Positions 9,118 through 63,800 of a stretch of 64,000 bases of DNA are shown here, in pieces. A program made the translations under genes and the position numbers. The notes beneath the pieces were generated by a model. It was given only the letters and a program-made list of their open reading frames with translations, was not told the DNA's origin and searched no databases. Numbering within the stretch: the stretch's first letter is position 1; the number at the start of each line of letters is the position of its first letter. Source of the DNA: an uncultured Candidatus Saccharibacteria bacterium (GTDB lineage Bacteria; Patescibacteriota; CALEFQ01); NCBI GenBank assembly GCA_965230955.1, contig OZ246404.1:353184-417183 (forward strand). Direction: 5' to 3'.

Positions 9118-10513
9118 TCTAAAAAAAATAAAGCGAATCCACTTGATTGGTATCAAGGGTGTTGGCATGTCCGCCTTGGCTTTGATTTTGAAAGGGCGGG
9201 GATTTCAGGTGACCGGTTCGGATGTGGCGCAGGAATTTATCACCGATAAAAATTTGATTTCAGCCAAGATTCCCGTCACGGCGTTCGCGGCCGAAAATAT
9301 CTCGCCGCAAATCGATCTCGTGGTCACGACTCCGGCCTGGGGAGAAAAAAACCCGGAAATAGCGCAGGTCCGCCAATTGAAATTGCCGGTGATTTCCGGA
9401 GCCGCTCTGCTGGGATTATTGATGGATCAGCGGCGCGGGATTGTGGTCACCGGGACTCACGGCAAAACGACCACTACCGCGACGCTGGCTTTTGTTTTGC
9501 ATTATCTGGGATTAGATCCTTCATATTTTATCGGTACCGGTAAAATTTTCGGTCTGGAAGCGAATGGCCATGCCGGCCGGGGAGAATTTCTGGTCGCCGA
9601 GGGGGATGAATACAAAAGCGTCGCGGAAGGCCAGCGCTCGAAATTCATGGATCTGCGCCCGGAATTGGCGATTATCACCAGCGTGGAAATGGATCATCCC
9701 GATGTGTTTGCTTCGCTGGTTGAGGTCAAAAAAACTTTTCGTGATTTCACGAAAAATATTCGCCCCCATGGTTTCATTGCCGCTTATGGTGATGCGCGGA
9801 GCGTCCGGGAAGTGACGGCCGATGTCCCTTCGGCTACCGTCGAGTATTACGGGCTAGAAAGTAACAACACCTGGCGCGCGACGGATTTGGTATTTCGCGA
9901 ACAATCGACCGATTTTTCGGTGCATTATCGAGGGGAAGCACTGGGGCGTTTCACCACCCAACTGGCCGGACGGCACAGTGTTTTAAATACGCTGGGCGTG
10001 ATTGCCGTTTGCCATCATTTGGGTTTGGATCTGGAGCGGGTCAAAACGGCTTTGCGTGAATTTATCGGCAGTGAACGGCGTTTGGAATACAAAGGTGAAA
10101 AAAAAGGCGTTTTGGTCTACGATGATTACGCCCACCATCCGACCGCTATCAAGACGACTCTCGAGGGCCTGCAAGCTCGTTTTCCGGAGCGCAAAATCTG
10201 GTGCGTTTTCCAGCCGCACACTTTCTCCCGCACGAAAGCATTGTTGCCCGATTTTGCCGTCTCTTTCGGCGCGGCGGACCATGTTTTGCTGACGGAAATA
10301 TGGGGCTCGGCTCGAGAGAAAAAGGGTGATGTCAGTTCGCGTGATATCGTCAGTTTGGGGGCTAAGCGACATCCCGATATGCGCTTTTGTCCGGACATGG
10401 CCGCGGCTCAGCGGATACTGGAAAAAGAAGCCCGAGCGGGCGAGCTTATCGTCACTATGGGCGCGGGCGATATTTATCATTTGGCGGAATATTATCTTTC
10501 AAGTATCAAGTAA
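9107..10513 (+). CDS. murC: UDP-N-acetylmuramate--L-alanine ligase
   Basis: GIKGVGMSALA and GTHGKTTTT Mur ligase motifs. Confidence 0.85.
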   Translation: MPIDLKKIKRIHLIGIKGVGMSALALILKGRGFQVTGSDVAQEFITDKNLISAKIPVTAFAAENISPQIDLVVTTPAWGEKNPEIAQVRQLKLPVISGAALLGLLMDQRRGIVVTGTHGKTTTTATLAFVLHYLGLDPSYFIGTGKIFGLEANGHAGRGEFLVAEGDEYKSVAEGQRSKFMDLRPELAIITSVEMDHPDVFASLVEVKKTFRDFTKNIRPHGFIAAYGDARSVREVTADVPSATVEYYGLESNNTWRATDLVFREQSTDFSVHYRGEALGRFTTQLAGRHSVLNTLGVIAVCHHLGLDLERVKTALREFIGSERRLEYKGEKKGVLVYDDYAHHPTAIKTTLEGLQARFPERKIWCVFQPHTFSRTKALLPDFAVSFGAADHVLLTEIWGSAREKKGDVSSRDIVSLGAKRHPDMRFCPDMAAAQRILEKEARAGELIVTMGAGDIYHLAEYYLSSIK

Positions 10514-10589
10514 CAGGGAACAAGTAACAAATTGGAATAAAATTATTCCTATTGATTCCCTGATACTTGTTACCTGTTACTTGATACTT
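10501..10589. repeat. GTAACAG-heptad palindrome (about 30-bp arms) at murC 3' end
   Basis: aagtatcaagtaacagggaacaagtaacaa ... ttccctgatacttgttacctgttacttgatactt; left arm overlaps murC stop. Confidence 0.8.
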
Positions 10590-10600
10590 AAAACGCTTCA

Positions 10601-11533
10601 ATGCTAAAAAAACTCGCCAATCTCCAAGAGAATATCCCCCTCTCGCGTTATACCACCTTCCGTCTCGGCGGCCCGGCGCGGTATTTGGTTGAGGTAAAAA
10701 ACCGCGAAGAATTGATTGGTGCTTTGAATTGGGCGCGCGATCAGAAAATTCGATACATGATTATCGGCGGTGGAAGTAATGTTTTGTTTTTGGATAGCGG
10801 TTTCGACGGCTTGGTGATAAAAAATTCTACTCTCAAACTGGAAGTTTCCGGCGAGCGGATGATGGTTGATTCCGGTGTCGGTCTGCATACTCTCGTCGTC
10901 GAAGCTTGTCGCCGCGGTTTGGCCGGACTGGAGAGTTTGTCCTGGATTCCGGGATCGGTCGGCGGAGCGATTTACGGCAATGCCGGAGCGTATGGCCAGG
11001 AAATCGGAAAAGTCGTGGAGACGGTGGAGGTCTATGATGAAAAGACGGGGCAGGTCAAGCAGTGTACCGCGTCGGAGTGCAATTTTTCTTATCGCGATAG
11101 CGTATTTAAAAGTGTCGGGGGAGTCATTGTTTTAGGCGCGACCCTGAAGTTATCGGCGGCTAAAGATAATGAGTTGACTGATAAGTGCGAAACGATTAAG
11201 CGGGAACGGCAGAAAAAAATTCCCGTCGAGCCCAGTGCCGGCTGTGTTTTTCAAAATATCCCGGTTTCGGAAGCTCAGAAAAACGACAAACTCAATTCTT
11301 TTTTGGCCCAGGTCAAAGGTGACAAGGTGGCGGCCGGGCTATTGATTGACCGGGCCGGTTTGAAAGGAAAAAAGATCGGCGGAGCGATGGTTTCTCCCCG
11401 GCACGCCAATTTTATCGTCAATACCGGTCAGGCCACAGCGGATGATGTGCTAAAATTAATCAGCTTGATTAAGGCCAGCGTTCGTGATATGTTTGGAGTG
11501 AATTTGGAGTGTGAGGTGCAAATAATCAGGTAA
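10601..11533 (+). CDS. murB: UDP-N-acetylenolpyruvoylglucosamine reductase
   Basis: FAD-binding MurB N-terminus (TTFRLGGPARYLVEV) and C-terminal MurB domain. Confidence 0.85.
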   Translation: MLKKLANLQENIPLSRYTTFRLGGPARYLVEVKNREELIGALNWARDQKIRYMIIGGGSNVLFLDSGFDGLVIKNSTLKLEVSGERMMVDSGVGLHTLVVEACRRGLAGLESLSWIPGSVGGAIYGNAGAYGQEIGKVVETVEVYDEKTGQVKQCTASECNFSYRDSVFKSVGGVIVLGATLKLSAAKDNELTDKCETIKRERQKKIPVEPSAGCVFQNIPVSEAQKNDKLNSFLAQVKGDKVAAGLLIDRAGLKGKKIGGAMVSPRHANFIVNTGQATADDVLKLISLIKASVRDMFGVNLECEVQIIR

Positions 11534-11604
11534 CAGTTAACAAGTAACAGGTAACAAGGAACAAAAAGGAAAAATATTATTCTAATTTGTTACCTGTTAC
11601 TTGT
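11529..11604. repeat. GTAACAG-heptad palindrome after murB
   Basis: ggtaacagttaacaagtaacaggtaacaaggaacaa ... ttgttacctgttacttgt. Confidence 0.8.
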
Positions 11605-11614
11605 AAATAATCCT

Positions 11615-12172
11615 ATGAAAATCGTCATCAAAGGAACCAACACCGAATTAACGCCGTCGCTTAAGGAGTACGTGTACGAAAAAGTCGGCCAGCTGGAGAA
11701 GTATATCAAGCGGGTGGTGGAAGCCGATGTCGAACTGGAAGTTTACAAAAAGCATAATTCGGGCGAAAATTTTCGGGCGGAAGTGATGCTTTTCGTCCCG
11801 AAAGATGTTTTGCGCGCTTCGGAACAGGCGACGGATATGTACGCGGCCATCGATTTGGTTATGCCCAAACTGAAAAAGCAAATCGAGAAATATAAGGCGA
11901 AGATCCAGCACAAGCACCAGCGCCAATCACGTTCTTTTTCTTGGGGCGAATTGTTTGGCACGCCGAAGCCAGAAGAAGAAGAACCGGTTCAGCCGCGGAT
12001 CGTTAAACGCAAGCAGTTTTCGATGACGGACCCGATTTCCGAGGCCGAGGCTATTCGGCAGATGAATTTGATCGGACATGATTTCTTCCTCTTCCATAAT
12101 GCCGATACCGATCGGATGAGTGTGGTGTACAAACGGGATGACGGGGATTATGGATTAATCGAGCCGAAGTAA
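11615..12172 (+). CDS. hpf: Ribosome hibernation promoting factor (long form)
   Basis: MKIVIKGTNTELTPSLKEYVYEKV N-terminus typical of RaiA/HPF, with C-terminal dimerisation extension. Confidence 0.8.
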   Translation: MKIVIKGTNTELTPSLKEYVYEKVGQLEKYIKRVVEADVELEVYKKHNSGENFRAEVMLFVPKDVLRASEQATDMYAAIDLVMPKLKKQIEKYKAKIQHKHQRQSRSFSWGELFGTPKPEEEEPVQPRIVKRKQFSMTDPISEAEAIRQMNLIGHDFFLFHNADTDRMSVVYKRDDGDYGLIEPK

Positions 12173-12225
12173 GAAATTAAGATTATTAAGAGTATTAAGA
12201 TATTAAGAATGCTAAGGTTTAAGAT
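12170..12225 (+). repeat. Tandem TTAAGA array between hpf and NUDIX gene
   Basis: taagaaattaagattattaagagtattaagatattaagaatgctaaggtttaagat. Confidence 0.7.
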
Positions 12226-12714
12226 ATGAGGAAAGGGACGTTGTATTTTTTGCTCCGAGGAGAAGGGGATGATTTGGAAGTGTTGCTGGCGATGAAGAAA
12301 CGCGGGTTTGGGCGGGGGAAGTGGAACGGCTGTGGCGGAAAAGTCGAGAAGGCGGAAACGATTGAGCGGGCCATGATTCGCGAGGCGGAGGAAGAAATCG
12401 GAGTCAAGCCTAAAATTTTCGCCCAGGTTGCGATTTTGACTTTTACCTTTCCCGATGTCCCTAAAGAAAAAAGCTGGGATCAGGAGATTCATGTTTTCAC
12501 CGGACGTGAAGCTGAGGGGGAGCCGAGAGAAACGGAAGAAATGAAGCCGCAGTGGTTTGCGGCCAAGAGGTTACCTTTCGCCCAGATGTGGATCGATGAT
12601 CCTCACTGGCTACCCCAAATTTTGTCTGGCCAAAAAATCAGAGCCAGTTTCGCTTTTTCGGGCGCGGGCACGGGGATAAAAGAAAAAAAGATCGAAAAGG
12701 TGGAGCGATTCTAA
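12226..12714 (+). CDS. NUDIX hydrolase
   Basis: Nudix box GGKVEKAETIERAMIREAEEEIGV. Confidence 0.75.
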   Translation: MRKGTLYFLLRGEGDDLEVLLAMKKRGFGRGKWNGCGGKVEKAETIERAMIREAEEEIGVKPKIFAQVAILTFTFPDVPKEKSWDQEIHVFTGREAEGEPRETEEMKPQWFAAKRLPFAQMWIDDPHWLPQILSGQKIRASFAFSGAGTGIKEKKIEKVERF

Positions 12715-12811: not shown

Positions 12812-12845
12812 GAAGGTAAATAAAAAAGCAGGAACGGGTGTTCCT
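12812..12845 (-). terminator. Rho-independent terminator of the 12858-13919 gene
   Basis: Minus-strand hairpin agcaggaac-gggt-gttcctgct followed by a T-run (ttttttatttacc). Confidence 0.7.
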
Positions 12846-12857
12846 GCTTGCGATATT

Positions 12858-13919: not shown

Positions 13920-13973
13920 TTTAGGCCTCCTTCTGGTTGAGCCGACCATCTTAGGTCGGCTGGTTGTGTGGAA

Positions 13974-14002
13974 ACCCTATCAAAAAGAAAGCTGTTTGTC
14001 AA
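13974..14002 (-). promoter_or_regulatory. Putative sigma-70-type promoter for orphan gene (TTGACA-17-TAGGGT)
   Basis: Consensus -35 TTGACA on minus strand, 17-nt spacer, weak -10. Confidence 0.3.
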
Positions 14003-14029
14003 TGTTATGTGGTAATTTTTTTCCTGATT

Positions 14030-14065
14030 TTTCCAAAAAAAAGACACGGAAACTCTGTCTTTTGC
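14030..14065 (-). terminator. Rho-independent terminator (minus strand) upstream of the orphan gene promoter
   Basis: Stem aaaagaca/tgtctttt with 9-nt loop followed on the minus strand by a run of about 9 T residues. Confidence 0.6.
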
Positions 14066-14437
14066 GCACATAGAAAGGAGGTACCCTCAGAGCAGTTGTT
14101 ACCAGATGGTTAAGCTCTTTTGGGAGTGGTGGCAAAGTTTCCGTGTCAGGATGGCCCTCAAGCCTCATGAACAATCAACCGAGAGGCTTTTGGAGGCAAA
14201 ATACATATTATTACACTTTACGGATAGTGTCAAGGGCGGGGAGTCGGTATTCAAATATCGAACTGAATTCAATTGTAAATGTTGCAATAAGCGCCTTGGT
14301 CCCTTGGAATTTCGCAGTTTATCGCCCTTCTGCCGGAGGCAGGGACACTGGTTATTTGATAAGATTACCAATTATTATGTAGCTTGATTACACCTAGAGA
14401 TAGTGCTAAACTAACTCTGTTTTTAACTATTCAATTT

Positions 14438-17104
14438 ATGTCGGTATTCTCCAAAATGTTTGGCGACAGCGAGACGCGCTTGGCCAAAAAATACGCTCCG
14501 ATTATTGCGCAGATCAATGAGTTTGATCGATCTTTTGATAAACTGACGGATGATCAGCTTCGGGCGAAAACCAAGGAGTGGCAAGCGAAATTCAAGAGCA
14601 TAAAAGATTTGGCGGAAGAGAAAAAACAACTGGAAGCTATGCTACCCGCCGCTTTTGCCGCGGTCAAAAATGCCTGCAAACGTTTACGGGGGACGGAATA
14701 CGAAATCGCCGGAATCAAAGAAAAATGGCAAATGGTGCCGTTTGATGTCCAGCTGATCGGCGGAATCGTGCTCCATCACGGCCGAATCGCTGAAATGAAA
14801 ACCGGCGAAGGCAAAACTTTGGTGGCGACGCTTCCGATTTATCTCAATGCCCTGACCGGCCGCGGCGTCCATGTCGTCACGGTCAACGAATACTTGGCCG
14901 CCCGCGATGCTTCTTGGATGGGACTTGTCTATAAATTTTTGGGTCTCACTGTCGGATCGACTTTACACGAACAAACTCCGGCGGAGAAAAAGATTGCTTA
15001 TAACTGCGATATCACTTACGGCACCAATAATGAATTCGGCTTCGACTATTTGCGCGACAATATGGTTTACGAGCTGAAGCAGAAAACCCAGCGCGAACTG
15101 CATTATGCCATTGTCGATGAAGTCGACAGCATTTTGATCGACGAAGCGCGTACTCCTTTGATTATTTCCGCGCCGGATGAGGAATCGGGTAAAATGTACA
15201 GCCAGTTCGCGGCTATGATTCCGCGGCTGAAAGAAAATGTCCATTATAATGTCGATGAAAAAGACAAAGCGGCTTTTTTGACCGATGCCGGCATGGATGA
15301 ACTGGAGAAAATGCTCGGGACAAGCAATATTTACAACGAAAAGGGCGTCGCCTATGTTCATCATCTCGAGCAGGCGCTCAAGGCCCATGCGTTATTTAAG
15401 CTTGATCGCGATTACGTAGTGAAGGAAGGCGAGGTCATTATTGTCGATCAGTTTACCGGGCGTTTGATGCCGGGACGACGTTATTCCGAAGGTTTGCACC
15501 AGGCGATTGAAGCCAAGGAAGGCGTGGCGGTGCAGAAAGAAAGCAAAACCCTGGCGACGATCACTTTTCAGAATTATTTTCGTCTTTATAAAAAACTGGG
15601 TGGTATGACCGGTACGGCCAAAACCCAGGAAGAAGAATTTCAAAAGGTTTATAATCTCGAAGTTGATATCATCCCGACCAATAAACCGATGGTTCGCGAT
15701 GATCAGGCCGATAAAATTTATAAAAACGAACAGGGGAAATACAAGGCGGTGGTGGAAGAACTAAAACGTCTCCAGGCCAAAGGCCAGCCGGTTTTGGTCG
15801 GCACGATTGCCATCCAAAAATCCGAAGTCCTCAGCGGGATGTTGCGTCGAGCGGGTGTGCCGCACGAAGTCTTGAACGCCAAACAGCATGAACGCGAAGC
15901 CAAGATTGTGGCCAAGGCGGGTCAAAAAGGCGCCATCACGATCGCGACCAATATGGCCGGACGCGGAACAGACATCAAGCTCGGACCCGGCGTGGTTGAA
16001 GTCGGCGGTTTGCATGTGTTGGGAACGGAGCGGCATGAAGCCCGACGGATCGACAATCAGCTGCGCGGACGGAGTGGGCGCCAGGGTGATCCCGGCTCAT
16101 CCCAGTTTTACGTTTCCATGGATGATGATTTGATGCGGATGTTCGGCTCGGATCGGATGAAGGCGATTATGGAAACGCTCAAAGTCCCGGAAGACCAGCC
16201 GATTGAAAGCGGAATTATTTCCAAGCAAATCGAGGGTGCCCAGAAAAAGGTGGAAGGCCATAACTTTGATATTCGCCGCTATGTGCTGGAATACGACAAT
16301 GTGATGAACAAGCATCGGGAGATTATGTATAAAAAACGGCGAGAGATTTTGGAAGCGTGGGAGAATGAAAAAGTCAAAAGTCAAAAGTCAAAAGTCAAAA
16401 GCGAGGAACTACCCTATCCCAATGTGAAAACGTTGCGGGAGAGGGTGTGGGAGATGGTTGAGAAAGAACTGGAAACGGTAGTGGAAGATAAAACTCGGAC
16501 GGAAGTGGAACAGGATTGGGATGTCGAGGAAATTATGGAAGTGTGCAATACGATTTTCCCGGCAACATCTGATTTGCGGCAAAATCTGGAAAAAATTGCC
16601 GGCCAGGCGGGGACCGAGGCGCAAGATGGACTGGCTCGGACGGAAATGAAAAAATACTTGTTGGGTTTGGCGCGAGCGGCTTACGATCGCAAAGAAAAAG
16701 AAATCGGGTCGCCGACCATGCGCCAGATCGAGCGGGCGATTTTATTGCGCTCGATCGACATGCTCTGGATCGAGCACCTCGACGCGATGCAATCATTGCG
16801 TGAGGGGATTGGGCTCCGCGGTTACGGTCAGCGCGATCCGCTGGTGGAATACAAGCGCGAAGGCTATCGTTATTTTGAAGAATTGCTGGCCAATGTGCAG
16901 AAGCAAGTGGTCTATACTATTTACAAAGTAAAAGTTGAAGCAAAAAAGCCTCTCCCGATGGAAAGCGCGCAGAAAATGACGTCGGGGGGAGATAACTCAA
17001 AAACAAGTGCCGCGCCGGCTAAAAAGAAAGAGCAGATTGGGCGCAATGATCCCTGTCCGTGTGGCAGTGGAAAAAAATACAAAAAATGTCACGGAGCGGA
17101 ATAA
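14438..17104 (+). CDS. secA: Preprotein translocase ATPase SecA
   Basis: SecA N-terminus (MFGDSETRLAKKY), DEAD-like motor motifs, C-terminal zinc finger CPCGSGKKYKKCHG; start chosen at ATG 14438. Confidence 0.9.
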   Translation: MSVFSKMFGDSETRLAKKYAPIIAQINEFDRSFDKLTDDQLRAKTKEWQAKFKSIKDLAEEKKQLEAMLPAAFAAVKNACKRLRGTEYEIAGIKEKWQMVPFDVQLIGGIVLHHGRIAEMKTGEGKTLVATLPIYLNALTGRGVHVVTVNEYLAARDASWMGLVYKFLGLTVGSTLHEQTPAEKKIAYNCDITYGTNNEFGFDYLRDNMVYELKQKTQRELHYAIVDEVDSILIDEARTPLIISAPDEESGKMYSQFAAMIPRLKENVHYNVDEKDKAAFLTDAGMDELEKMLGTSNIYNEKGVAYVHHLEQALKAHALFKLDRDYVVKEGEVIIVDQFTGRLMPGRRYSEGLHQAIEAKEGVAVQKESKTLATITFQNYFRLYKKLGGMTGTAKTQEEEFQKVYNLEVDIIPTNKPMVRDDQADKIYKNEQGKYKAVVEELKRLQAKGQPVLVGTIAIQKSEVLSGMLRRAGVPHEVLNAKQHEREAKIVAKAGQKGAITIATNMAGRGTDIKLGPGVVEVGGLHVLGTERHEARRIDNQLRGRSGRQGDPGSSQFYVSMDDDLMRMFGSDRMKAIMETLKVPEDQPIESGIISKQIEGAQKKVEGHNFDIRRYVLEYDNVMNKHREIMYKKRREILEAWENEKVKSQKSKVKSEELPYPNVKTLRERVWEMVEKELETVVEDKTRTEVEQDWDVEEIMEVCNTIFPATSDLRQNLEKIAGQAGTEAQDGLARTEMKKYLLGLARAAYDRKEKEIGSPTMRQIERAILLRSIDMLWIEHLDAMQSLREGIGLRGYGQRDPLVEYKREGYRYFEELLANVQKQVVYTIYKVKVEAKKPLPMESAQKMTSGGDNSKTSAAPAKKKEQIGRNDPCPCGSGKKYKKCHGAE
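16369..16401 (+). repeat. Four tandem GTCAAAA heptads in frame inside secA
   Basis: aaagtcaaaagtcaaaagtcaaaagtcaaaagc encoding EKVKSQKSKVKSEE. Confidence 0.85.
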
Positions 17105-17560: not shown

Positions 17561-17565
17561 AAAAA

Positions 17566-17640
17566 GCCGCAAGTGTTTGAGGAGCGAGGGCTGGAATCTT
17601 TCGCTCGGCGCTACTTGATTCCGTGACACTTGCGGCAGCC
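17566..17640 (+). other. Structured element after ppa: 11-bp long-range stem enclosing inner hairpin
   Basis: gccgcaagtgt ... acacttgcggc with inner gagcgag...ctcgctc-like hairpin; no T-run after it. Confidence 0.35.
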
Positions 17641-17831
17641 AAATTTCATATCTCCTGATGGAGAATCAGAAGGGTTGGCTAGTTTCCCGTCTGGTGATAG
17701 CACTAGTTTAACAAAACTATGGGTAAATGCAAGAAAAAACGGCAAAAGAAAGATAACTTTATGTGGCAGGGTGGGGGGAGAAGTGGTATGATAATATCTG
17801 AATAATATTGTCGTAAATATACTAAAACATT

Positions 17832-19244: not shown

Positions 19245-19247
19245 TAA

Positions 19248-19263
19248 GTCAAAAGTCAAAAAA
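19248..19263 (+). repeat. GTCAAAA heptad pair after gadB stop
   Basis: gtcaaaagtcaaaaaa. Confidence 0.6.
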
Positions 19264-20899: not shown

Positions 20900-20941
20900 A
20901 AAGATATTAAGACGTTAAGATATTAAGAATATTAAGACATC
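20897..20941 (+). repeat. Tandem TTAAGA array after deacetylase gene
   Basis: taaaaagatattaagacgttaagatattaagaatattaagacatcc. Confidence 0.7.
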
Positions 20942-20981: not shown

Positions 20982-22406
20982 ATGAAAAAAGGAACTTTTT
21001 TATGGGTTGTGGGGATGGCTATTGCCGGGGTTGGTTTATTGGCCGGTAGCGCTCAGGCGGCCAATACCATGGCGCCGGAAGTAAAAGTTTTTAATGACAA
21101 CATGTCCAGTGTCGAAAAATCCTTTTTAGCTTGGCCGGTCAGCAATCAAAACGGCTGCAGTGTGGCCGTCGGAGATATAGACGGCAACGGTTACGGTGAA
21201 ATTATTGTCGGCGCCGGCAAAGGATCCGGGCCGCAGATCAGAATTTTTTCTAAAAACGGCGTCAATCAAGGTTTGGACTTTTTCGCCTTTGCGAATGATT
21301 TTCGCGGGGGAGTATCGGTGGCGACGGGAGATGTTGATGGTGACGGCAAAGAAGAAATAATTGTCGGTCAGCGCTCAGCCGGTCAGGCGCGGGTGAAAAT
21401 TTATCGCGCTAATAAACAACATTCGATAGTGGCCGAGTGGCTGGCTTATTCCGGCAATTTCCAGGGCGGTGTCACGGTCACGGCGGGTGATTTTAACGGT
21501 GACGGCAAGGACGAGATCGCCACGGCTCCGGGAACGAGCGGCGGAGCCCAAATTAAGTTTTTTGACGGCAAAGGGAAGCCAATGGGCAAGTCATTTTTCG
21601 CTTTTGATCCAGGAGAAAAAGGCGGTGCCACTCTGGCGGCCGCTGACGTTGACGGCGACGGATCCGATGAGTTGGCCGTGGGTCATGGTCCTTTCGGAGA
21701 TCCAAGAGTCAAGCTTTATCGAATTGTCGGAAATAGCGAATTTGTCTTGGCTGATTGGCGCGCTTATGACGCCGGTTTTCGCGGTGGAGTAAAAGTGGCG
21801 GCGGGCGATTTTGACAACAACGGCAAAGAAGAAATTTTGACAGCGGCCGGCTTTGGCGGCGGACCGCAAGTGCGGGGCTGGACAGCTTCCGGGAAACTGT
21901 ATAAAATCAACCGAATGGCCTATGCGGCCGATTTCCGCGGCAGTTTAAATCTGGCGTCCGGCGACATTGATCGCGACGGAAAATTGGAAATCGTTACTGT
22001 TCCCGATCGACGCCTGGGTGAAGGCCGACTGGATTATTTCCGTTATATCGATGTCAGTTTGGGTGAACAGCGCCTGCGGGCATTTGAGAACGGTGAATTG
22101 GTCCGAACATATTTGGTTTCTACCGGCACGGCTAAACATCCGACCCCGACCGGAACTTTCCATATCCAGGGACACACTCTATCTACCAGAATGGCTTGGG
22201 TATACGGTCCCGATAATCCGGATAACTACGATTTGCCCAATGTTCCTCATGTCATGCCCATTAGCGGTCCGATTACGATTCACGGCGCTTATTGGCACCA
22301 TAATTTCGGTCACGTGATGAGCCACGGGTGTATCAATGAACCTTTGGATCAAGCTGCCTGGTTATACTCCTGGGCGCGCAATGGAGATACGGTAATAGTA
22401 CATTAA
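20982..22406 (+). CDS. Secreted FG-GAP-repeat protein fused to L,D-transpeptidase (YkuD) domain
   Basis: Signal peptide, FG-GAP repeats (GDIDGNGYGEII etc.), C-terminal YkuD catalytic motif HGxxxxxxSHGCIN. Confidence 0.7.
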   Translation: MKKGTFLWVVGMAIAGVGLLAGSAQAANTMAPEVKVFNDNMSSVEKSFLAWPVSNQNGCSVAVGDIDGNGYGEIIVGAGKGSGPQIRIFSKNGVNQGLDFFAFANDFRGGVSVATGDVDGDGKEEIIVGQRSAGQARVKIYRANKQHSIVAEWLAYSGNFQGGVTVTAGDFNGDGKDEIATAPGTSGGAQIKFFDGKGKPMGKSFFAFDPGEKGGATLAAADVDGDGSDELAVGHGPFGDPRVKLYRIVGNSEFVLADWRAYDAGFRGGVKVAAGDFDNNGKEEILTAAGFGGGPQVRGWTASGKLYKINRMAYAADFRGSLNLASGDIDRDGKLEIVTVPDRRLGEGRLDYFRYIDVSLGEQRLRAFENGELVRTYLVSTGTAKHPTPTGTFHIQGHTLSTRMAWVYGPDNPDNYDLPNVPHVMPISGPITIHGAYWHHNFGHVMSHGCINEPLDQAAWLYSWARNGDTVIVH

Positions 22407-22494
22407 GTAACAAGGAACAGGTAACAGATAACAAAGAGGAAAATTTCTTTTCCCGGTTGTTATTTTGTTACTTGTTACTTGTTAACTGTTACTT
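22404..22494. repeat. GTAACAG-heptad palindrome before secD
   Basis: taagtaacaaggaacaggtaacagataacaa ... ttgttacttgttacttgttaactgttactta. Confidence 0.8.
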
Positions 22495-22500
22495 ATTTTT

Positions 22501-25039: not shown

Positions 25040-25070
25040 AAAAATATCGAGCTTGCTCGATATTTTTGTT
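25040..25070 (+). terminator. Rho-independent terminator after secF
   Basis: Hairpin aaaaatatcga-gcttgc-tcgatattttt followed by tgttg. Confidence 0.6.
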
Positions 25071-25107: not shown

Positions 25108-25188
25108 CTCTTTGCTGGAGTGCGAACCCCGGTACCTATATTTTGTAGGTCTATATTTGTCTTAAATAAGCTATTTTATTATAAAAAC

Positions 25189-44750: not shown

Positions 44751-44780
44751 GGGCATGTTGCTTTCGGCGTCCGGTAATTT

Positions 44781-48019: not shown

Positions 48020-48042
48020 TTTTTCCTTGTTTTTAATTTTTA

Positions 48043-48594: not shown

Positions 48595-48697
48595 TGGAGG
48601 GTTGGAATAGATTAAACCTTGATTTAGTATAGTAGTAGTCGAATCGGCGGAGTAAAACTGAACTGAAAATGTGTGTTAGAATATTTCACTAAATCCG

Positions 48698-49309
48698 CTA
48701 TTCGGAAATAACCCAGAAACCGCCTCGTCTTTTTTTGCCATGCCTTTTTATTGCATCAATTAGGTTGGGTAGTTCAGCTCTTCGCTTTTTCGGCACGCTT
48801 CTGCCCGGATCAATTAATGTGACAATATTTCTATTGATGCTTTGAATTACGCAGGCATGTCCCCAGTCGCCGGAGCCGAAAAGCCGTTTACTGTTAAAAC
48901 AAACAATTACATCATTAGCTTTGCTGATATTGTCGCTAATAAACTTCGAATGATTTTTTACTTTTTCGAGAGGAAAATATGATTCTTTTAGGTCGATTTT
49001 GTATTTCCGAAAAAAATGATTTATTGAGAATCGTTTTTTGGCGACCTGGGTGCCATAACCTGCGATTGGTTTGCTGCCGGTCTTAACTTTTTTAAACTTA
49101 TGTGCTATTTCATTGGGAACGATCAATCCTAATTCGTGGCCAATTTCATCTTGGGTGCCATGTTTAATTTTTCGCCGGTCTAAAACCATCTTTAGGCATG
49201 CCGGAACACAATGATAGGGCAATTGTGTGATTGGTTTGTAGGGCGGTTTTTGATTCATAGCATAAATTACTTCTCTGCAGGATTTTTTAAACTCAAAAAA
49301 TAAGCTCAA
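48698..49309 (-). CDS. Papain-like / peptidase C39-like cysteine peptidase domain protein
   Basis: HCVPACLKMV Cys motif resembling C39 CGxxCLxM and downstream GHACVI His. Confidence 0.45.
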   Translation of the reverse strand: MSLFFEFKKSCREVIYAMNQKPPYKPITQLPYHCVPACLKMVLDRRKIKHGTQDEIGHELGLIVPNEIAHKFKKVKTGSKPIAGYGTQVAKKRFSINHFFRKYKIDLKESYFPLEKVKNHSKFISDNISKANDVIVCFNSKRLFGSGDWGHACVIQSINRNIVTLIDPGRSVPKKRRAELPNLIDAIKRHGKKRRGGFWVISE

Positions 49310-49457
49310 TCCATTCCGGTAATTTTTAGGTATATGTGATTGTTTGTGGAGTGAAACGTAATAATACCATTGTAATTTACTGACCGATTTAAGGCAAACA
49401 ATGCGAAAAGGCTCAAAAAAGAGAAAAATCGAGTTTTTGGCATATTTCCGAAGATCT

Positions 49458-49486
49458 TTGGCACTCCATCCTATCTATGTTATAAT
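49458..49486 (+). promoter_or_regulatory. Sigma-70-type promoter TTGGCA-17-TATAAT
   Basis: Read directly upstream of ftsA-like gene. Confidence 0.55.
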
Positions 49487-49521
49487 CATATAATAAAAAG
49501 GCTTTCGCCTAACGTTTTGTT

Positions 49522-50775
49522 ATGGGTTTATTTAGCAAACCAAAAACCAAATTACACCAATACGCCCTGGCGCTTGATATCGGTACGGCCGTAGTCAAAG
49601 CACTGGTGGTTCAGATAGATTTTCGCGAGTCCCGCGGGACGATTATTGGCGTGGGTAAAGAGCCGCAGCGGCTGGGTGATATGCACTCCGGCGCTGTCAG
49701 CAATATTGAAGGAGTGGTGGCTACGTCTCAACGTGCTATCGCGCGGGCGACTCAAATGGCGAAAGTCGAGCCGGATCAAGTTGTTTTGGGAATCGCGGGC
49801 GAACAGGTGAAAGGTGCCAAGACCACGGTTCATTACGAAAGGCTGAAACCGGACAGCAAAATTGATGCCAATGAATTGAAAGAAATTGTCGGACAAGTTC
49901 AGCAACGCGCTTTTGAAAAAGTGCGCAAGCAATTGGCTTGGGAAACCGGGCACAATGAAATCGACGTGAAGTTAATCAATGCGGCGGTCGTTGACGTTCA
50001 TATCGACGGTTATCGAGTGTCTAATCCGCTGGGCTTTCAGGGCAAGGATGTCAGTATCGGTATTTTCAATGCTTACGCTCCCTTGATCCATTTAGGCGCG
50101 CTGCAGTCGATTGCCGCTGATTTGGGGCTGGATTTGCTCAGTATCACCGCCGAACCGTATGCCGTTGCGCGCGCCGTCAGCGAGGATAGCGATGATTTCG
50201 GCGGAATTTTCATTGATATCGGCGGGGGAACGACGGATATCGCGGTGGTGCACAAGGGCGGGGTGGAAGGAACGAAAATGCTGGCGATTGGGGGCCGGGC
50301 TTTCACCAAAAGATTGGGTGACGAATTAGGCAAAGGTTTTGATGAAGCCGAACAGATTAAATTGCGTTATTCCGCCTCGAGGCTCGGACCGGAAGGCATG
50401 GTCAAGATAAAAGATATCCTAACCAATGACTTGAGGGTCTGGCTCTCGGGCGTCGAGCTGGCTCTAAGCGAATTCAAAGGCATTGATTTATTGCCGTCCC
50501 GGATTTTCCTGTGCGGCGGCGGATCGATGCTTTCTGGTATCAAAGAGTCTCTACTGTCTCAGAAATGGATCGAAAATTTGCCGTTTGCCCGTCCGCCCAA
50601 GGTGGTGCACCTGAAACCGAAAGATGTTAAGGATATTGTCGATCAGACCAAAACATTGAAAGATACTTCCGATATCACCCCGATGTCTCTGGCCAATGTG
50701 GCGATTGAGCTGGCCGGGACAGAAACGGTGATGGGAAAAGTTTTGCACAAAGTAGTCAGCATTTTGGAAACCTAA
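49522..50775 (+). CDS. ftsA: Actin-like ATPase, FtsA/PilM family
   Basis: Phosphate-1 ALDIGTAVVKALVV and phosphate-2 IDIGGGTTDIAV motifs; 417 aa fits FtsA. Confidence 0.6.
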   Translation: MGLFSKPKTKLHQYALALDIGTAVVKALVVQIDFRESRGTIIGVGKEPQRLGDMHSGAVSNIEGVVATSQRAIARATQMAKVEPDQVVLGIAGEQVKGAKTTVHYERLKPDSKIDANELKEIVGQVQQRAFEKVRKQLAWETGHNEIDVKLINAAVVDVHIDGYRVSNPLGFQGKDVSIGIFNAYAPLIHLGALQSIAADLGLDLLSITAEPYAVARAVSEDSDDFGGIFIDIGGGTTDIAVVHKGGVEGTKMLAIGGRAFTKRLGDELGKGFDEAEQIKLRYSASRLGPEGMVKIKDILTNDLRVWLSGVELALSEFKGIDLLPSRIFLCGGGSMLSGIKESLLSQKWIENLPFARPPKVVHLKPKDVKDIVDQTKTLKDTSDITPMSLANVAIELAGTETVMGKVLHKVVSILET

Positions 50776-52928: not shown

Positions 52929-53008
52929 TTGGTCTTTGATCTTTAGTCTTTCGCCCCTTACAGGCAGGAGACCAAAGACTAAAGACCAAAGACTAACGAC
53001 TAAAGACC
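52929..53008. repeat. AGTCTTT-heptad palindrome between rpmJ and rpsM
   Basis: ttggtctttgatctttagtctttcg ... gagaccaaagactaaagaccaaagactaacgactaaagacc. Confidence 0.8.
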
Positions 53009-57556: not shown

Positions 57557-57590
57557 AAGGCTCCGGCTTGTGCCGGAGCCTTTTGTTTTT
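57557..57590 (+). terminator. Rho-independent terminator
   Basis: ggctccggc-ttgt-gccggagcc followed by ttttgttttt. Confidence 0.7.
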
Positions 57591-61059: not shown

Positions 61060-61668
61060 ATGAAATTGACCCGTGTAATCTTATTACGCCAGGGTGGTAC
61101 CATGTGGCACGATCAGGATCAACTGGTCGGGCAAAAGAACGCTGAATTGTCGCTCTCCGGTTTGGTGCGGGCGGAAAAAACAGCTCAGTTATTGAGCTCG
61201 GAAAAAATCGACGCAATTTTTTCATCTAATCTGGGGCGGGCGATAGACACGGCCAAAGCGGTTGCCAAGTATCATCGGCTTCGAGTTATGGCTGATCCCG
61301 AGCTGAATGAACGAGGATTTGGAGATTTGGAAGGGAAAAAACGCAAAGAGCTGGTCAAAGAGCTGAAGCATTTACGCCAAGAAATGGAGAGCAAACCGGA
61401 AGGCGGGGAAAGCGATTATCATTTTGAAAGGCGCGTTGTCGGTTTTCTGGAAGAATGTTTGAAGCAAAACGAAGGAAAAGTGCTCCTCCTGGTTTCGCAT
61501 GAAGGGCCTATCCGGGTAATGCAGCGATACTTCAGCCGTTTTGATACTACCAAAGGAGACGATGACTATCGGGCTTCTTTGGGCGGAATCTCGGAATTTG
61601 AAGTAAAAAGTCTGGCTCCGCTCGAAGTTGCGATCAAAAAATGGGATGCGGTTGAGCACCTGAGCTAA
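61060..61668 (+). CDS. Histidine-phosphatase (phosphoglycerate-mutase-like) family protein with RHG changed to RQG
   Basis: LLRQGGTMWH in place of RHGE; C-terminal LLVSHEGPIRV (SHGG-like). Confidence 0.6.
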   Translation: MKLTRVILLRQGGTMWHDQDQLVGQKNAELSLSGLVRAEKTAQLLSSEKIDAIFSSNLGRAIDTAKAVAKYHRLRVMADPELNERGFGDLEGKKRKELVKELKHLRQEMESKPEGGESDYHFERRVVGFLEECLKQNEGKVLLLVSHEGPIRVMQRYFSRFDTTKGDDDYRASLGGISEFEVKSLAPLEVAIKKWDAVEHLS

Positions 61669-61732
61669 GTCAAAAATCAAAAGTCAAAAGTGGTTTGCCA
61701 ACTTTTTACTTTTGACCTTTGACTTTTGACTT
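61669..61732. repeat. GTCAAAA-heptad palindrome before murA
   Basis: agtcaaaaatcaaaagtcaaaagtgg ... ccaactttttacttttgacctttgacttttgactt. Confidence 0.8.
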
Positions 61733-61739
61733 AAATTCT

Positions 61740-63008: not shown

Positions 63009-63355
63009 AAAAAGCCGAGCAATCTCTCAACGCTTTTAGCGATTGAGGGTGCTCGGCCGGGCCGATGTACGCGCAGTAGACAAGTCGTCTACGGAGAGAA
63101 TTCAATTCGCCTGGAGACGACCAGGCTAGCCAGCCTATTTCTCGGGTGAGCAGGGCGCCTGCTGTTTCATCCAATACTTCACTAGCTTTCATACTTACTC
63201 CCCACTTGCCAGATCCTCAGGTCTGAAGGACTTTTCCTGGCTGCAGCTCGGATTCATTCCGCAGTTGGCGGTTACCCCGGAGGGAAATCCGTTTCGACGC
63301 TGGCGTACATTAGCTTTAAGCTATATTAACCAGGATTATTTCCGATGTCAAGTTA
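63009..63355. other. 345-bp ORF-free GC-rich region with multiple short hairpins (candidate structured RNA or gene remnant)
   Basis: No ORF with RBS; local hairpins (gtagac-aagtc-gtctac, aggct-agcc-agcct, agcagg-gcgc-ctgct); unusual for this otherwise dense genome. Confidence 0.3.
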
Positions 63356-63385
63356 TTGGCCAAGAGTAGTAAATTATCCCTGATT

Positions 63386-63727
63386 ATGAAAATCGTTAAG
63401 AAAACCGGTACCAAAAAATTTACCAATAGCCCGGTCTGCACTGCCTGGGAGTATCCTTTAGGTGACAAGGATATTAACGGTGCCGTGATTGAGCTTAACG
63501 GGCGTTATCCCGAGAAAGAATTTGCGATTAACGAAAAATGCAAAGAAATGGCTTATGTTGTTAGCGGCGCCGGTAGGCTAATAACTGTTGAGGGAGAAGT
63601 CGAATTTTCTGCCGATGATTTATTACTTATTGATGCCGGCGAAAAATACTATTGGGAAGGGCGAGCTAAAATTTTCGTGCCTTGTACACCGGCCTGGTAT
63701 CCGGAGCAGCATAAGATAGTGCCTTAA
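63386..63727 (+). CDS. Cupin-domain protein
   Basis: Small beta-barrel-like protein with conserved G...E...G pattern; weak family assignment. Confidence 0.4.
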   Translation: MKIVKKTGTKKFTNSPVCTAWEYPLGDKDINGAVIELNGRYPEKEFAINEKCKEMAYVVSGAGRLITVEGEVEFSADDLLLIDAGEKYYWEGRAKIFVPCTPAWYPEQHKIVP

Positions 63728-63800
63728 GTCAAAAGTCAAAGCTCAAAAGTCAAAAGTTTGATCATCTTACTTTTTATTTTTGACTTTTGATCTTTGACTT
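63727..63800. repeat. GTCAAAA-heptad palindrome before mreB
   Basis: agtcaaaagtcaaagctcaaaagtcaaaag ... ctttttatttttgacttttgatctttgactt. Confidence 0.8.

Follow-up and report, generated by a model that had tools for sequence, protein, structure and literature searches.

The window, a 64,000-nt stretch of DNA from a Saccharibacteria genome (Patescibacteria, CPR; ~1.1 Mb), contains intergenic spacers built from short repeats of a 7-nt unit. Its inventory comprises nine inverted-pair loci, three TTAAGA arrays repeating every 8–9 nt, a mini-array, a T-rich array without a partner and an array lying in frame within secA. Nine of the ~12 heptad loci are inverted pairs, and three to four unit families occur side by side in one genome.

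1166–1192, plus strand: direct TTAAGA(TA) array, period 8, 3.5 units, starting on the amidohydrolase stop codon and ending 14 nt upstream of the next ATG
4317–4378: TAGTCTT/AAAGACT palindrome (AGTCTTT family) in the divergent spacer between lysW (minus strand) and PALP (plus strand); fold −26.2 kcal/mol, z −5.5
10497–10593: GTAACAR palindrome filling the murC–murB spacer, 33-nt arms (91%), with the murC stop TAA (10511–10513) within a heptad and the 3′ arm ending 7 nt upstream of the murB ATG; fold −40.6 kcal/mol, z −10.2
11530–11607: GTAACAR palindrome filling the murB–hpf spacer, murB stop within the first heptad; z −7.2
12170–12227, plus strand: direct TTAAGA array, period 8–9, about 7 units, spanning the interval between the hpf stop and the nudix start codon
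16369–16401, plus strand: perfect array of 4.7 AAAAGTC units within secA, in frame, coding for KVKSQKSKVKS
19246–19261, plus strand: mini-array of 2.3 GTCAAAA units directly 3′ of the glutamate decarboxylase double stop
20901–20940, plus strand: direct TTAAGA array, period 8, 3′ of the polysaccharide deacetylase stop
22404–22495: GTAACAR palindrome filling the YkuD(Ldt)–secD spacer, its first three bases being the stop TAA; z −6.1
38507–38613: GTCAAAA/GGCAAAA 5′ arm, nested GC-rich hairpin (about 38543–38579) and 3′ arm of three TTTTGAC units; z −6.3
38974–39063: GTAACAR palindrome between two coiled-coil genes, next ATG at 39068; z −4.9
43952–43983, plus strand: lone array of 4.6 TTGTTAC units (3′-arm type), with TAACTGA as a variant unit at 43967, between the alaS stop (43946–43948) and the PHP gene ATG (43987); fold z +0.98
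52929–53008: GGTCTTT/AAAGACY palindrome (AGTCTTT family) filling the rpmJ–rpsM spacer; z −5.8
61666–61733: GTCAAAA palindrome (92%) filling the His-phosphatase–murA spacer, its first bases being the stop TAA, murA ATG at 61740; z −5.7 and −6.4
63724–63802: GTCAAAA palindrome 3′ of the cupin gene, with a separate promoter-like TTGACA site between it and mreB (ATG 63846); z −7.2

Tandem Repeats Finder and a periodicity scan of the whole window yielded 16 period-7 segments (≥16 of 21 self-matches) as compared with 0.13 in Markov shuffles, and 0–2 segments for periods 4–6 and 10–13. Thirteen of the 16 were mostly intergenic, with intergenic DNA making up 7.7% of the window. Matches to two consecutive units also exceeded the expectation from dinucleotide shuffles of the window (GTAACAR, 23 versus 0.01; GTCAAAA, 15 versus 0.06; AGTCTTT, 10 versus 0.25; TTAAGA-N2-TTAAGA, 6 versus 0.27). 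The statement of an earlier, sequence-only reading of this DNA that its spacers are non-random and built from a few heptad families was thus borne out. That reading gave 10501–63800 as the range of the elements; those at 1166 and 4317 fall outside it. Because an independent Logan assembly was 100% identical over 12.2 kb, the heptad elements are not an assembly artefact.

The nine inverted-pair loci fold into hairpins of 21–33 bp with RNA-fold z-scores of −4.9 to −10.2. The GTAACAR palindromes previously described after murC, murB and the Ldt gene and between the coiled-coil genes were all recovered (z −4.9 to −10.2), as were the GTCAAAA palindromes before murA and mreB (61666–61733 and 63724–63802), but the palindrome proposed after alaS turned out to be a single T-rich arm (43952–43983). 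Both AGTCTTT palindromes, at 4317 and 52929, exist, although the former does not mark a gene end, as it lies in a divergent spacer beside the minus-strand start of lysW (4313). The TTAAGA arrays on stop codons were confirmed at 1166–1192, 12170–12227 and 20901–20940 and had no inverted partner in the window, whereas the supposed direct GTCAAAA arrays elsewhere led to the array at 16369–16401, which is located inside the secA reading frame. The repeats of the window keep a 7-nt register, other periods being nearly absent, and show a strong intergenic bias, unit families common to several spacers, and hairpin stability far beyond that of shuffled sequences.

The first heptads contain the stop codons of the murC, murB, YkuD/Ldt, 110-aa, His-phosphatase and cupin genes, so that the reported overlap of arms with stop codons holds at six genes. 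This overlap is automatic, because three copies of a 7- or 8-nt unit bearing TAA, TAG or TGA suffice to place a stop in every frame. Of the 13 array-bearing spacers of ≥30 nt, 11 separate co-directional genes, and arrays occupy 11 of the 24 co-directional +|+ spacers and none of the five convergent ones. In six of the eight palindromes between co-directional genes, only 3–8 nt separate the 3′ arm from the next ATG, the exceptions being 38507–38613 (29 nt) and 63724–63802 (43 nt). One element resides within the infA-rpmJ-rpsM ribosomal cluster.

Relatives with 72–81% nucleotide identity carried elements at the same spacers, with a different heptad unit and both arms altered in concert, whereas more distant relatives had spacers of 0–44 nt or overlapping genes at these junctions. 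The murC–murB and murB–hpf spacers measure 87 and 81 nt in the window, as compared with a 4-nt overlap and 6 nt in L126, 44 and 13 nt in L003, and 4 and 10 nt in L128; no arrays were found in 21 kb of L219. The rpmJ–rpsM spacer holds a non-heptad hairpin in L135 and is 3 nt long in L219. At lysW–PALP the same family recurs in L129 and a TAGAAAT palindrome occurs in L003; TAAGA-type arrays occupy the hpf–nudix spacer (12170–12227) in L003 and L128, and at the polysaccharide deacetylase spacer (20901–20940) L131 and L132 combine a TTAAGA array with a reverse TCTTAA array into a palindrome. The unit differs between genomes at YkuD(Ldt)–secD (GTAACAR in the window, GTCAAAA palindrome in L131), at His-phosphatase–murA (GTCAAAA in L134, GGCAAAA:TTTTGCC in L133) and upstream of mreB (63724–63802; GTAAAAA array in L133). 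The coding array in secA also differed in concert, with AAAAGTC here and four AAAACGC units at the same place and of the same length in orthologues. Cross-arm compensation at His-phosphatase–murA amounted to three UA→GC double changes plus two CG→UG changes, a count based on three sequences with one countable orthologous pair and reached by 28 of 500 shuffles; replacement by another family could also produce it. In the comparison with sister genomes, recommended earlier for detecting presence/absence polymorphism, L133 had an additional GTAACAA palindrome of ~100 nt between conserved flanks, absent from the window and L134, and some spacers were without arrays; at 72–81% identity the elements persisted at the same spacers. 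These comparisons show that one subclade gained the elements, at junctions where more distant relatives are compact, and that the elements persist at the same spacers while the unit changes across all units of an array. Since the genes flanking them overlap or almost touch in more distant relatives, and since they also occur within a ribosomal cluster, transcription most likely proceeds through them.

The explanation we favor, with about an even chance of being correct, is that the elements are heptanucleotide microsatellites of the type known as STRR or long simple-sequence repeats, in which two opposed arrays of one unit form a hairpin filling the whole spacer and probably transcribed as an intercistronic RNA stem-loop. 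Slippage during replication, in a 7-nt register, would create the arrays and keep them homogeneous, units or whole elements would sometimes move between loci, and the maintained property would be the hairpin, not the sequence. Maintenance is suggested because the relatives are only 72–81% identical in DNA and unmaintained sequence would have decayed. As 11 of the 13 spacers are co-directional and the next start is mostly a few nt away, the elements are probably transcribed within polycistronic mRNAs, where any action would be that of a REP-style 3′-exonuclease barrier, RNase III processing site or cistron decoupler. They would be neither terminators nor promoters, and the −35-like TTGAC of the GTCAAAA family would serve at most for opportunistic promoter use (38592). 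The TTAAGA 8–9-mers may represent a related but older array type with a more conserved sequence. Sense-strand mismatches were G·U rather than A·C by 36 to 21 (p = 0.06, a trend only; 11:10 in the window alone). Complementarity between the two arms of one element was no higher than with same-family arms of other elements, so that there is no fine-scale covariation within the genome. One element in a divergent spacer and one array without a partner speak against the favored explanation. The hairpin at a given spacer is dispensable in some relatives, such as L219 with its 3-nt rpmJ–rpsM spacer. Similar arrays were found in cyanobacteria, Bacteroidota and other CPR.

The sequence-only reading had interpreted the palindromes as gene-end terminators and the TTGAC repeats of the T-rich arm as tandem −35 boxes for the next gene. 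Hairpins do start at stop codons, 3′ arms are T-rich, a GC-rich hairpin followed by ACTTTTGACTTTTG lies within 38507–38613, an inner hairpin at 39006–39024 precedes a T-rich tail, and the postulated TTGACT-17-TATAAT is indeed supplied by a 3′ arm at 38592–38620, upstream of the 110-aa coiled-coil gene (promoter scan 11/12). However, all five convergent junctions lack an element and instead carry canonical GC-stem plus T-run terminators, which also occur at several co-directional junctions. A terminator scan flagged no heptad palindrome as a whole, only the small hairpin at 39006–39024, and no consistent T-run follows the stem or 3′ arm. At the six co-directional palindromes where the 3′ arm ends 3–8 nt before the ATG there is no room for a promoter and leader. 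Read from the sequence, no acceptable −10 occurs at 17 ± 1 nt except for 38592, likewise in L002 and L124; the site at 63780 scores 9/12, the background level, and 38592 alone reaches 11/12. Moreover, TTGAC is missing from the GTAACAR and AGTCTTT families, and elements are found in a divergent spacer (4317–4378), between genes that overlap in relatives and in the ribosomal-protein cluster. With a single good −35/−10 pair, a built-in, modular terminator-plus-promoter system is not supported by the evidence, and this weak reading is very unlikely to hold. Selfish, REPIN- or MITE-like non-autonomous DNA is an unlikely but more serious candidate: palindromes would be copied between spacers by a trans-acting enzyme, e.g., a Y1/HUH single-strand transposase acting on hairpins, without host function and with slippage only reshaping them afterwards. 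Few families spread over many spacers, proliferation in one lineage only, the extra palindrome of L133, the TAAGTC...GACTTA termini common to GTCAAAA-family elements across genomes, a Y1_Tnp gene 3′ of secA in L131/L132, and exact GTCAAAA palindromes in metagenome contigs of 31–68% GC would fit such copying, as would the switch between GTAACAR and GTCAAAA at three orthologous spacers, which is hard to achieve by in situ drift. Yet the elements have no conserved core, with loops varying from copy to copy, their arms are tandem arrays and not self-complementary REP units, and comparison around the extra L133 palindrome revealed no recognizable target-site duplication. The Y1_Tnp genes of relatives are flanked by CCCCGC-N4-GCGGGG hairpins instead of heptads, and the window contains neither this gene nor these hairpins. 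Orthologous positions also persist over long divergence while the unit shifts gradually by 1 nt (GTCAAAA, GGCAAAA, GTAAAAA), which has the look of in situ evolution.

Slippage could also operate without any maintained hairpin, the arrays being a neutral by-product of slippage-prone replication or repair (e.g., weak mismatch repair) that accumulates where tolerated. Heptamer arrays of many sequences occur across many phyla, some relatives have none, one array lies in frame within secA, and a polymerase-related preference for 7-nt slippage was put forward by Mrazek et al. 2007 (cited in PMC4679880 and PMC4692102). A purely mutational origin fits because composition-matched control heptamers form arrays in viral contigs about as often as GTCAAAA. 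We nevertheless regard incidental hairpins as improbable: in the window, nine of about 12 heptad loci consist of inverted pairs, as compared with only nine pairs among 352 period-7 segments in 878 kb of other genomes fetched by shared heptad unit, arm complementarity is kept when the unit changes (His-phosphatase–murA), and arrays are still regular in genomes with 72–81% gene identity. Alternatively, the repeats might be periodic sites for a nucleic-acid-binding protein, either an S1/Csp-type factor just upstream of starts or a ring-shaped RNA binder reading NAG every 7–8 nt, with binding competing with the hairpin. HutP and TRAP are ring-shaped RNA binders of this kind that read NAG triplets. 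Many units, as read from the sequence, place AAG or TAG at a fixed phase (AAGTCAA, AAGTAAC, TAGTCTT, TTAAGAnn), and the TTAAGA arrays keep their sequence in relatives down to 50% MurB identity. Regulator binding was proposed for TAACTGA repeats adjoining start codons (MacGregor 2015, PMC4679880), and deletion of heptamer repeats was reported to affect expression in Nostoc (preprint 10.1101/2022.06.06.494920). Such sites seem highly improbable here, as the unit varies between relatives, one genome holds three to four families side by side, NAG is missing from some units (CGAAATT in L003) and no candidate binding protein was identified.

Among known systems the nearest are the STRR/LSSR arrays of heptanucleotides described in cyanobacteria, Beggiatoaceae and Xanthomonas, combined here with a REPIN-like architecture. 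In REP, BIME and REPIN elements, which are associated with RAYT transposases (Bertels and Rainey 2011, PMC3116915), two inverted arms and a spacer likewise form a long extragenic hairpin of about 70–110 nt. Several families per genome and a usual location between co-directional or convergent genes are further likenesses. For REP sequences of E. coli an mRNA-stabilizing role has been proposed, which we also count as a likeness. The REP arm is a conserved 20–25-nt palindromic unit with a GTAG/CGTC tag, in contrast to the tandem 7-mers found here, no RAYT was present in the window, and the hairpins on either side of the Y1 transposase in relatives are GC-rich and differ from the heptad elements. 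The earlier comparison with REP/BIME elements hence stands for the architecture but not for the terminator and promoter functions attached to it. Rho-independent terminators share the stem-loop directly 3′ of the stop codon; unlike these, the stems here are long, A/U-rich and imperfect, lack a subsequent U-run and are absent from convergent junctions.

Among heptamer systems, the STRR of filamentous cyanobacteria (Calothrix, Nostoc/Anabaena; Mazel 1990 and Mrazek 2007, as cited in PMC4692102 and PMC4679880; Nostoc heptamers, 10.1101/2022.06.06.494920) share the 7-nt unit, tandem arrays of about 3–6 units, a mainly intergenic location that is often by a start codon, and the co-occurrence of several unit families in a genome. 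Three consecutive GTCAAAA units recur across dozens of genomes of Nostocales and Oscillatoriales, in some cases as +/− pairs 130–190 nt apart, whereas here the host has a ~1.1-Mb Patescibacteria genome and mostly inverted pairs fill the spacer and overlap the stop codon. The TAACTGA direct repeats of marine Beggiatoaceae, some Cyanobacteria and Bacteroidetes (MacGregor 2015, PMC4679880) resemble the present elements in their arrays of 2–6 units within a few nt of start codons, at genes without Shine-Dalgarno sequences, within ribosomal-protein operons and occasionally inside ORFs, and in their patchy taxonomic distribution. They comprise 169 direct sets versus one inverted set of a single dominant unit, in contrast to the predominance of inverted pairs and the three to four units seen here, and the unit itself differs, although TAACTGA is the variant unit at 43967. 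The GGGAATC/GGGGAYT repeats of Xanthomonas and Nostoc (Rehm 2015, PMC4692102) are likewise intergenic heptamer arrays, include some inverted pairs able to form stem-loops, and occur at the same gene pairs across related species, where they vary extensively in length and sequence; their units are G-rich and quadruplex-forming, whereas those in the window are A/T-rich without G-runs. Heptamer microsatellites had been described before in cyanobacteria and a few further bacteria, and the elements of the window represent a hairpin-paired form of them.

The window carries genes for cell wall and division (murD, ftsW, murG, murC, murB, a YkuD L,D-transpeptidase gene, murA and mreB), other housekeeping genes (a lysW-like zinc ribbon, hpf, secA, glutamate decarboxylase, secD, mnmA and alaS) and a ribosomal-type cluster, infA-rpmJ-rpsM-rpsK-rpsD-rpoA-rplQ, at a coding density of 92%. 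The top named homologues of MurB, SecA and MurA all bear the name "Patescibacteria group bacterium" or allied CPR names. A periodicity scan, which required at least 16 of 21 positions to equal the base 7 nt away and from which low-complexity runs were removed, found 16 period-7 segments in the window versus 0.13 in Markov shuffles. They were mostly intergenic (13 of 16, compared with 7.7% intergenic DNA in the window). Periods 4-6 and 10-13 yielded 0-2 segments, and periods 8 and 9 returned the direct TTAAGA arrays. The heptads form three families, GTAACAR, GTCAAAA and AGTCTTT (also written TAGTCTT), each present at 4-5 loci, and for every unit, dimers were one to three orders of magnitude more numerous than in dinucleotide shuffles.

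Unit dimers in the window, observed and expected from dinucleotide shuffles
GTAACAR x2: observed 23, expected 0.01
GTCAAAA x2: observed 15, expected 0.06
AGTCTTT x2: observed 10, expected 0.25
TTAAGA-N2-TTAAGA: observed 6, expected 0.27

Tandem Repeats Finder gave period-7 rows at all sites where a sequence-only reading of this DNA had placed heptad arrays, so that its description of patterned spacers is borne out as a whole, with minor corrections only. An independently assembled Logan contig is identical (100%) across 12.2 kb, and the repeats are therefore not an assembly artefact; related elements also occur in many independent assemblies.

Inverted pairs of arrays are present at nine loci of the window, each with 3-5 forward units that a loop of 1-57 nt separates from a reverse array of the same family. 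Folded as RNA, the nine pairs reach -24.8 to -43.9 kcal/mol (z -4.9 to -10.2), and 0 of 200 shuffles per element folded as stably as the element itself. The loops often contain a small hairpin of their own (GC-rich in the element at 38507-38613) and differ in sequence between copies. Usually the element occupies the whole spacer. Only 3-8 nt separate the 3' arm from the following ATG at six of the eight co-directional palindromes; at the other two the gap is wider (29 nt after 38613, 43 nt after 63802). Read directly, the spacers of the window are A/T-rich upstream of the ATG, and a Shine-Dalgarno-like purine run is generally missing before the start codons.

Arms had been said to overlap stop codons, and the first heptad indeed contains the upstream stop at six loci. 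This is unremarkable because a unit of period 7 or 8 that includes TAA, TAG or TGA stops all three frames within three units. The GTCAAAA unit is stop-free in every frame and can be translated, as in secA of the window (KVKSQKSKVKS) and at the 3' end of murC in the related locus L124. Three placements had to be amended. The array after alaS, taken for a palindrome, is a lone T-rich arm without a partner (z = +0.98); the one at 16369-16401, counted among direct arrays in spacers, lies within the secA reading frame; and that at 4317-4378, assigned to a gene end, belongs to a divergent spacer and precedes the start of the minus-strand lysW-like gene by 3 nt. The alaS gene itself (41618-43948) encodes a short-type alanyl-tRNA synthetase (PRK01584) with an inserted histidine-phosphatase (PGAM-like) domain at about residues 213-388.

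Arm complementarity within one element was no higher than between elements of the same family. An element thus amounts, within a genome, to no more than a pair of opposed arrays from a single family, and fine, arm-specific co-evolution at that scale is without support. Sense-strand mismatches over 22 elements were G.U-compatible in 36 cases versus A.C in 21 (p = 0.06), and 11 versus 10 in the window alone. The tests that did not DISCRIMINATE comprised these two comparisons and the same-strain contig pairs, which, for the pairs found, were 99.98-100% identical and so too alike to show slippage polymorphism. A known RNA family or tRNA-linked element was ruled out, as a scan of the whole window with Rfam 15 at gathering score gave 0 matches and there are no tRNAs.

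The window holds further repeats and hairpins outside the heptad families. At 36426-36499, where a sortase gene (-) and an alpha/beta hydrolase gene (+) diverge, the spacer contains a non-heptad palindrome whose 28-nt arms are 96% complementary and enclose an 18-nt loop. An ORF of 1480 aa (29695-34137) includes 3.1 copies (83% identity) of a 291-nt unit at 32022-32916, which presumably encode repeated protein domains. Three long spacers (270-490 nt; 13950-14437, 17561-17831 and 63009-63355) contain long-range hairpins, e.g. AAAAAGCCGCAAGTG...CACTTGCGGC, have similar sequence in the matching spacers of the related loci L129, L131 and L133, and gave 0 Rfam matches; these regions may be unannotated RNAs or gene remnants, and in L219 the position downstream of murA holds an ORF of 168 aa. 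The stretch 44000-50000 is lower in GC (0.40-0.44 versus ~0.49) and carries minus-strand HD-domain and metallophosphatase genes with spacers free of heptad arrays.

The distribution of the arrays over junction types was surveyed in all 37 spacers of at least 30 nt, a spacer being counted as array-bearing when arrays cover more than 30% of it.

Array-bearing spacers by orientation of the flanking genes
Co-directional, both on the plus strand: 11 of 24
Divergent: 1 of 5
Convergent: 0 of 5
Co-directional, both on the minus strand: 0 of 3

At 25% array cover, the spacer of the palindrome 38507-38613 (38362-38642) is just under the threshold; with it added there are 12 co-directional plus-strand spacers and 13 array-bearing spacers in total. 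The plus-strand set includes sites within conserved operon-like clusters. Terminators with a GC-rich stem and a T-run are found at the convergent and at several co-directional junctions (e.g. 12826-12849, 34193-34216, 25040-25067 and 57557-57582). The terminator scan of the window flagged such canonical sites and no heptad palindrome as a whole; the arms are trailed by ACGCTTCA, ATAATCCT, CCTTATG and similar sequences. The palindromes have neither the short G+C-rich stem with a directly following T-run nor the placement at transcription-unit ends or convergent junctions of intrinsic terminators. In the promoter scan, the TTGACT-17-TATAAT site that had been pointed out in one array (38592-38620) scored 11/12 and was the sole strong match inside an element. 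Sites at 63780 and 4358 scored 9/12, which is as common in shuffled sequence, and no -35/-10 pairs 16-18 nt apart were detected at the remaining elements. The earlier interpretation is supported in part; its modular system of terminators and promoters with tandem TTGACT -35 boxes has support at one site (38592) and is contradicted elsewhere by the distribution and anatomy of the elements. Conventional terminators and promoters exist in this genome; with ordinary terminators at convergent junctions and a single strong promoter match, the heptad hairpins are a separate class located mainly between co-directional genes. Clear TTGACT-type promoter-like sequences (25079 and 29640) precede a gene joining sigma-70 region-4-like and RNA polymerase delta-like segments and a downstream TraD/coupling-protein-like gene (25120-26295 and 27662-29638).

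Orthologous loci from other genomes were compared with the window.

Related loci and amino-acid identity to the window
L133: MurA 94%
L129/L130 and L131/L132: SecA 91%
L134: MurA 90%
L219: MurA 77%
L002: MurB 73%
L124/L125: MurB 68%
L126/L127: MurB 57%
L003 and L135 (one genome): MurB 53%, MurA 77%
L128: MurB 50%

Even in the closest relatives, the flanking genes are only 72-81% identical to the window at the DNA level. In the subclade around the window, nearly all of the compared spacers contain an element. Farther away, murC overlaps murB by 4 nt in L126, and gaps of 44 nt in L003 and 4 nt in L128 separate the two genes; the gap between murB and hpf in these three is 6-13 nt. L219 has no period-7 segment in 21 kb, and its rpmJ-rpsM spacer of 3 nt rules out that a hairpin is required at this junction. 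The elements are accordingly derived, with compact or overlapping junctions in the more distant relatives. At the rpmJ-rpsM junction, where the window has a heptad palindrome, L135 (3929-3981) carries an unrelated perfect 13-bp GC-centred hairpin (z -6.5).

Units in orthologous spacers
murC to murB: GTAACAR in the window; GTCAAAA in L002, L124 and L129
murB to hpf: GTAACAR in the window; GTAACAA in L129; GTCAAAA in L002 and L124
YkuD to secD: GTAACAR in the window; GTCAAAA in L131
lysW to PALP: TAGTCTT in the window and L129; TAGAAAT in L003
His-phosphatase to murA: GTCAAAA in the window and L134; GGCAAAA/GGTAAAA paired with TTTTGCC/TTTTACC in L133
cupin to mreB: GTCAAAA in the window; GTAAAAA in L133

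The position of an element thus persists between relatives while its unit changes, and orthologous arrays differ in both unit number and unit sequence. The in-frame array of secA follows the same pattern, with AAAAGTC x4.7 in the window (16369-16401) and AAAACGC x4 over the same codons in three relatives. It lies in a variable loop of SecA and is of unchanged length in the 91% identical orthologues (L129, 11923-11957; L131, 2064-2107). Since orthologues have an equal-length array of a different unit, an insertion was ruled out; the comparison shows that all copies in an array exchanged their unit in concert, inside an essential gene.

At the His-phosphatase-murA spacer, we compared the outer 24 nt of each arm in register across three genomes. 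The change in L133 consists of UA->GC double changes at three positions and CG->UG changes at two, and 91.7% of the cells are paired versus 28-61% with the partner shifted by 1-3 columns; with three sequences only, 28 of 500 shuffles attain the observed values. The presence/absence polymorphism that the sequence-only reading had proposed to look for in sister genomes was seen in one case and was not accompanied by a recognisable target-site duplication. In this case, L133 has an extra GTAACAA palindrome of ~100 nt, with a nested CCTGCCTACCGGCAGGCAGG hairpin inside, which separates two conserved motifs, CGTCAATC and TTGCCA; in the window and in L134 these adjoin each other. A GC-rich palindrome, CCTGCC(N)GGCAGGCAGG, occurs beside a heptad palindrome in L002 (1078-1097), nested in one in L133 (~3528-3547) and at a convergent junction in L219 (~7785-7800), and is not found in the window.

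The TTAAGA 8-9-mers are a sister class of the heptad elements. Their motif is kept in relatives down to 50% MurB identity, at the hpf-nudix junction and other spacers, which makes a sequence-specific role more plausible for these arrays. The array between the deacetylase and YkuD genes has a reverse partner in L131/L132.

The concerted unit changes suggest that slippage keeps homogenising the arrays. The hairpin itself is probably maintained, by selection or by hairpin-templated correction, as indicated by the regularity of the arrays and the complementarity of the arms at 72-81% DNA identity and by the compensatory change in L133. Some exchange between loci is suggested by the L133 insertion and by the recurrence of one family difference at three spacers. 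Transcription probably runs through the elements, given their co-directional location, the mostly insufficient room for a promoter and their insertion between genes that overlap in relatives. If functional, they would be intercistronic RNA stem-loops, serving as a REP-like stabiliser, a processing site or a decoupler. We consider it unlikely that these self-homogenising heptamer-array hairpins constitute either a distinct, actively maintained class of intercistronic elements, evolvable and tunable in length, or a new hairpin-mobilised miniature element. In a maintained class, slippage would renew each arm, selection or hairpin-templated repair would preserve complementarity while the unit drifts, and spacers would exchange elements or units; the RNA (or single-stranded DNA) hairpin could then govern how stable adjacent cistrons are, or how well they are translated, relative to one another in genomes without Shine-Dalgarno-led initiation.

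Patescibacteria genomes are ~1 Mb in size and tightly packed, yet hairpins of 70-110 nt here separate essential genes of the cell wall, secretion and the ribosome that in relatives abut or overlap, and this lineage has kept them at the same junctions over a long divergence. Should the hairpins act at the mRNA level, they would offer a simple, fast-evolving way of tuning operon expression in regulator-poor organisms. If they are selfish or purely mutational, streamlined genomes would also be subject to repeat proliferation, and the elements would mark lineages with unusual replication or repair. In either case, the heptamer arrays of cyanobacteria, Beggiatoaceae and Xanthomonas extend to the CPR, and the orthologous series, in which the same spacer has a different unit and arms that are still complementary, provides a data set for the question of what role heptamer tandem repeats play.

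A scan for GTCAAAA x3 in one genome per species gave at least 120 stretches. The matches listed were mostly from filamentous cyanobacteria (Nostoc, Scytonema, Calothrix, Stigonema, Aerosakkonema, Okeania and Fischerella), and among them were also Bacteroidota and at least about a dozen CPR genomes (Roizmanbacteria, Microgenomates, Chisholmbacteria, Parcubacteria, Saccharibacteria and Peribacteria). The CPR loci from these listed matches have several further heptad arrays with differing units within the same 5-8 kb, a few of them palindromic (L067 and L094), and a long ORF encloses the GTCAAAA array at several CPR loci. In the 878 kb fetched, only nine palindromic pairs occurred among 352 period-7 segments versus nine at ~12 heptad loci in the window. 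Exact GTCAAAA palindromes (16 + 16 nt) were present in 23 metagenome stretches of 31%-68% GC, almost all outside long ORFs. In viral contigs, x3 arrays were found in 19 stretches for GTCAAAA and in 10 and 31 for the composition-matched controls GCTAAAA and GTACAAA. As the control heptamers are about as frequent, the recurrence of GTCAAAA needs neither horizontal transfer nor a special function, and the idea of a special, horizontally spread unit was dropped.

[quoted passage not shown] Three heptamers of the tandem repeat type termed STRR are attributed to Calothrix (Mazel 1990, as cited in PMC4692102 and PMC4679880). The GGGAATC repeats of Xanthomonas and GGGGAYT repeats of Nostoc include inverted pairs and are found across related species at 'the same genes, extensive length and sequence variation' (PMC4692102). 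TAACTGA repeats of marine Beggiatoaceae, cyanobacteria and Bacteroidetes comprise 169 direct sets and one inverted set and lie a few nt from the start codons of genes without Shine-Dalgarno sites (PMC4679880), and heptamers near start codons in Nostoc had modest effects on reporter expression (10.1101/2022.06.06.494920). No earlier report of heptamer arrays in CPR/Patescibacteria was found in the literature searched, the coverage of which is incomplete.

REPINs consist of two REPs that fold into a hairpin, and they are linked to RAYT transposases (PMC3116915). The nine pairs of the window share with REPs and REPINs two inverted arms and a spacer that form a hairpin in extragenic DNA. In contrast to the REP/REPIN arm, a short imperfect palindrome with a GTAG/CGTC end, the heptad arms are direct tandem arrays without that tag. 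The RAYT is flanked by the same repeats in REPIN systems, and a Y1_Tnp (RAYT) gene was not found within the window. With arms that are tandem arrays, and with no cognate RAYT in the window, the elements do not qualify as REPs. In two relatives, an IS200-like Y1 transposase gene (PF01797; L131, 2810-3680; L132, 2866-3736) is inserted after secA, with three flanking CCCCGC-N4-GCGGGG hairpins, rather than heptads, in a REP/RAYT- or IS200-like arrangement. In the window, no such gene follows secA, and a pyrophosphatase gene comes directly after it. A link of the elements to this transposase or its GC-rich hairpins was rejected, as neither occurs in the window. Of MITE-type features, the one presence/absence case (L133) and shared TAAGTC...GACTTA ends were seen, and in the elements compared a duplication was not recognisable and a conserved core was missing. 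The elements are of the heptamer STRR/LSSR kind, because their unit length, tandem structure (at least three units), intergenic bias and multi-locus families all agree with it; their paired, spacer-filling, stop-codon-overlapping form is a variant of this kind that resembles REPINs in architecture.
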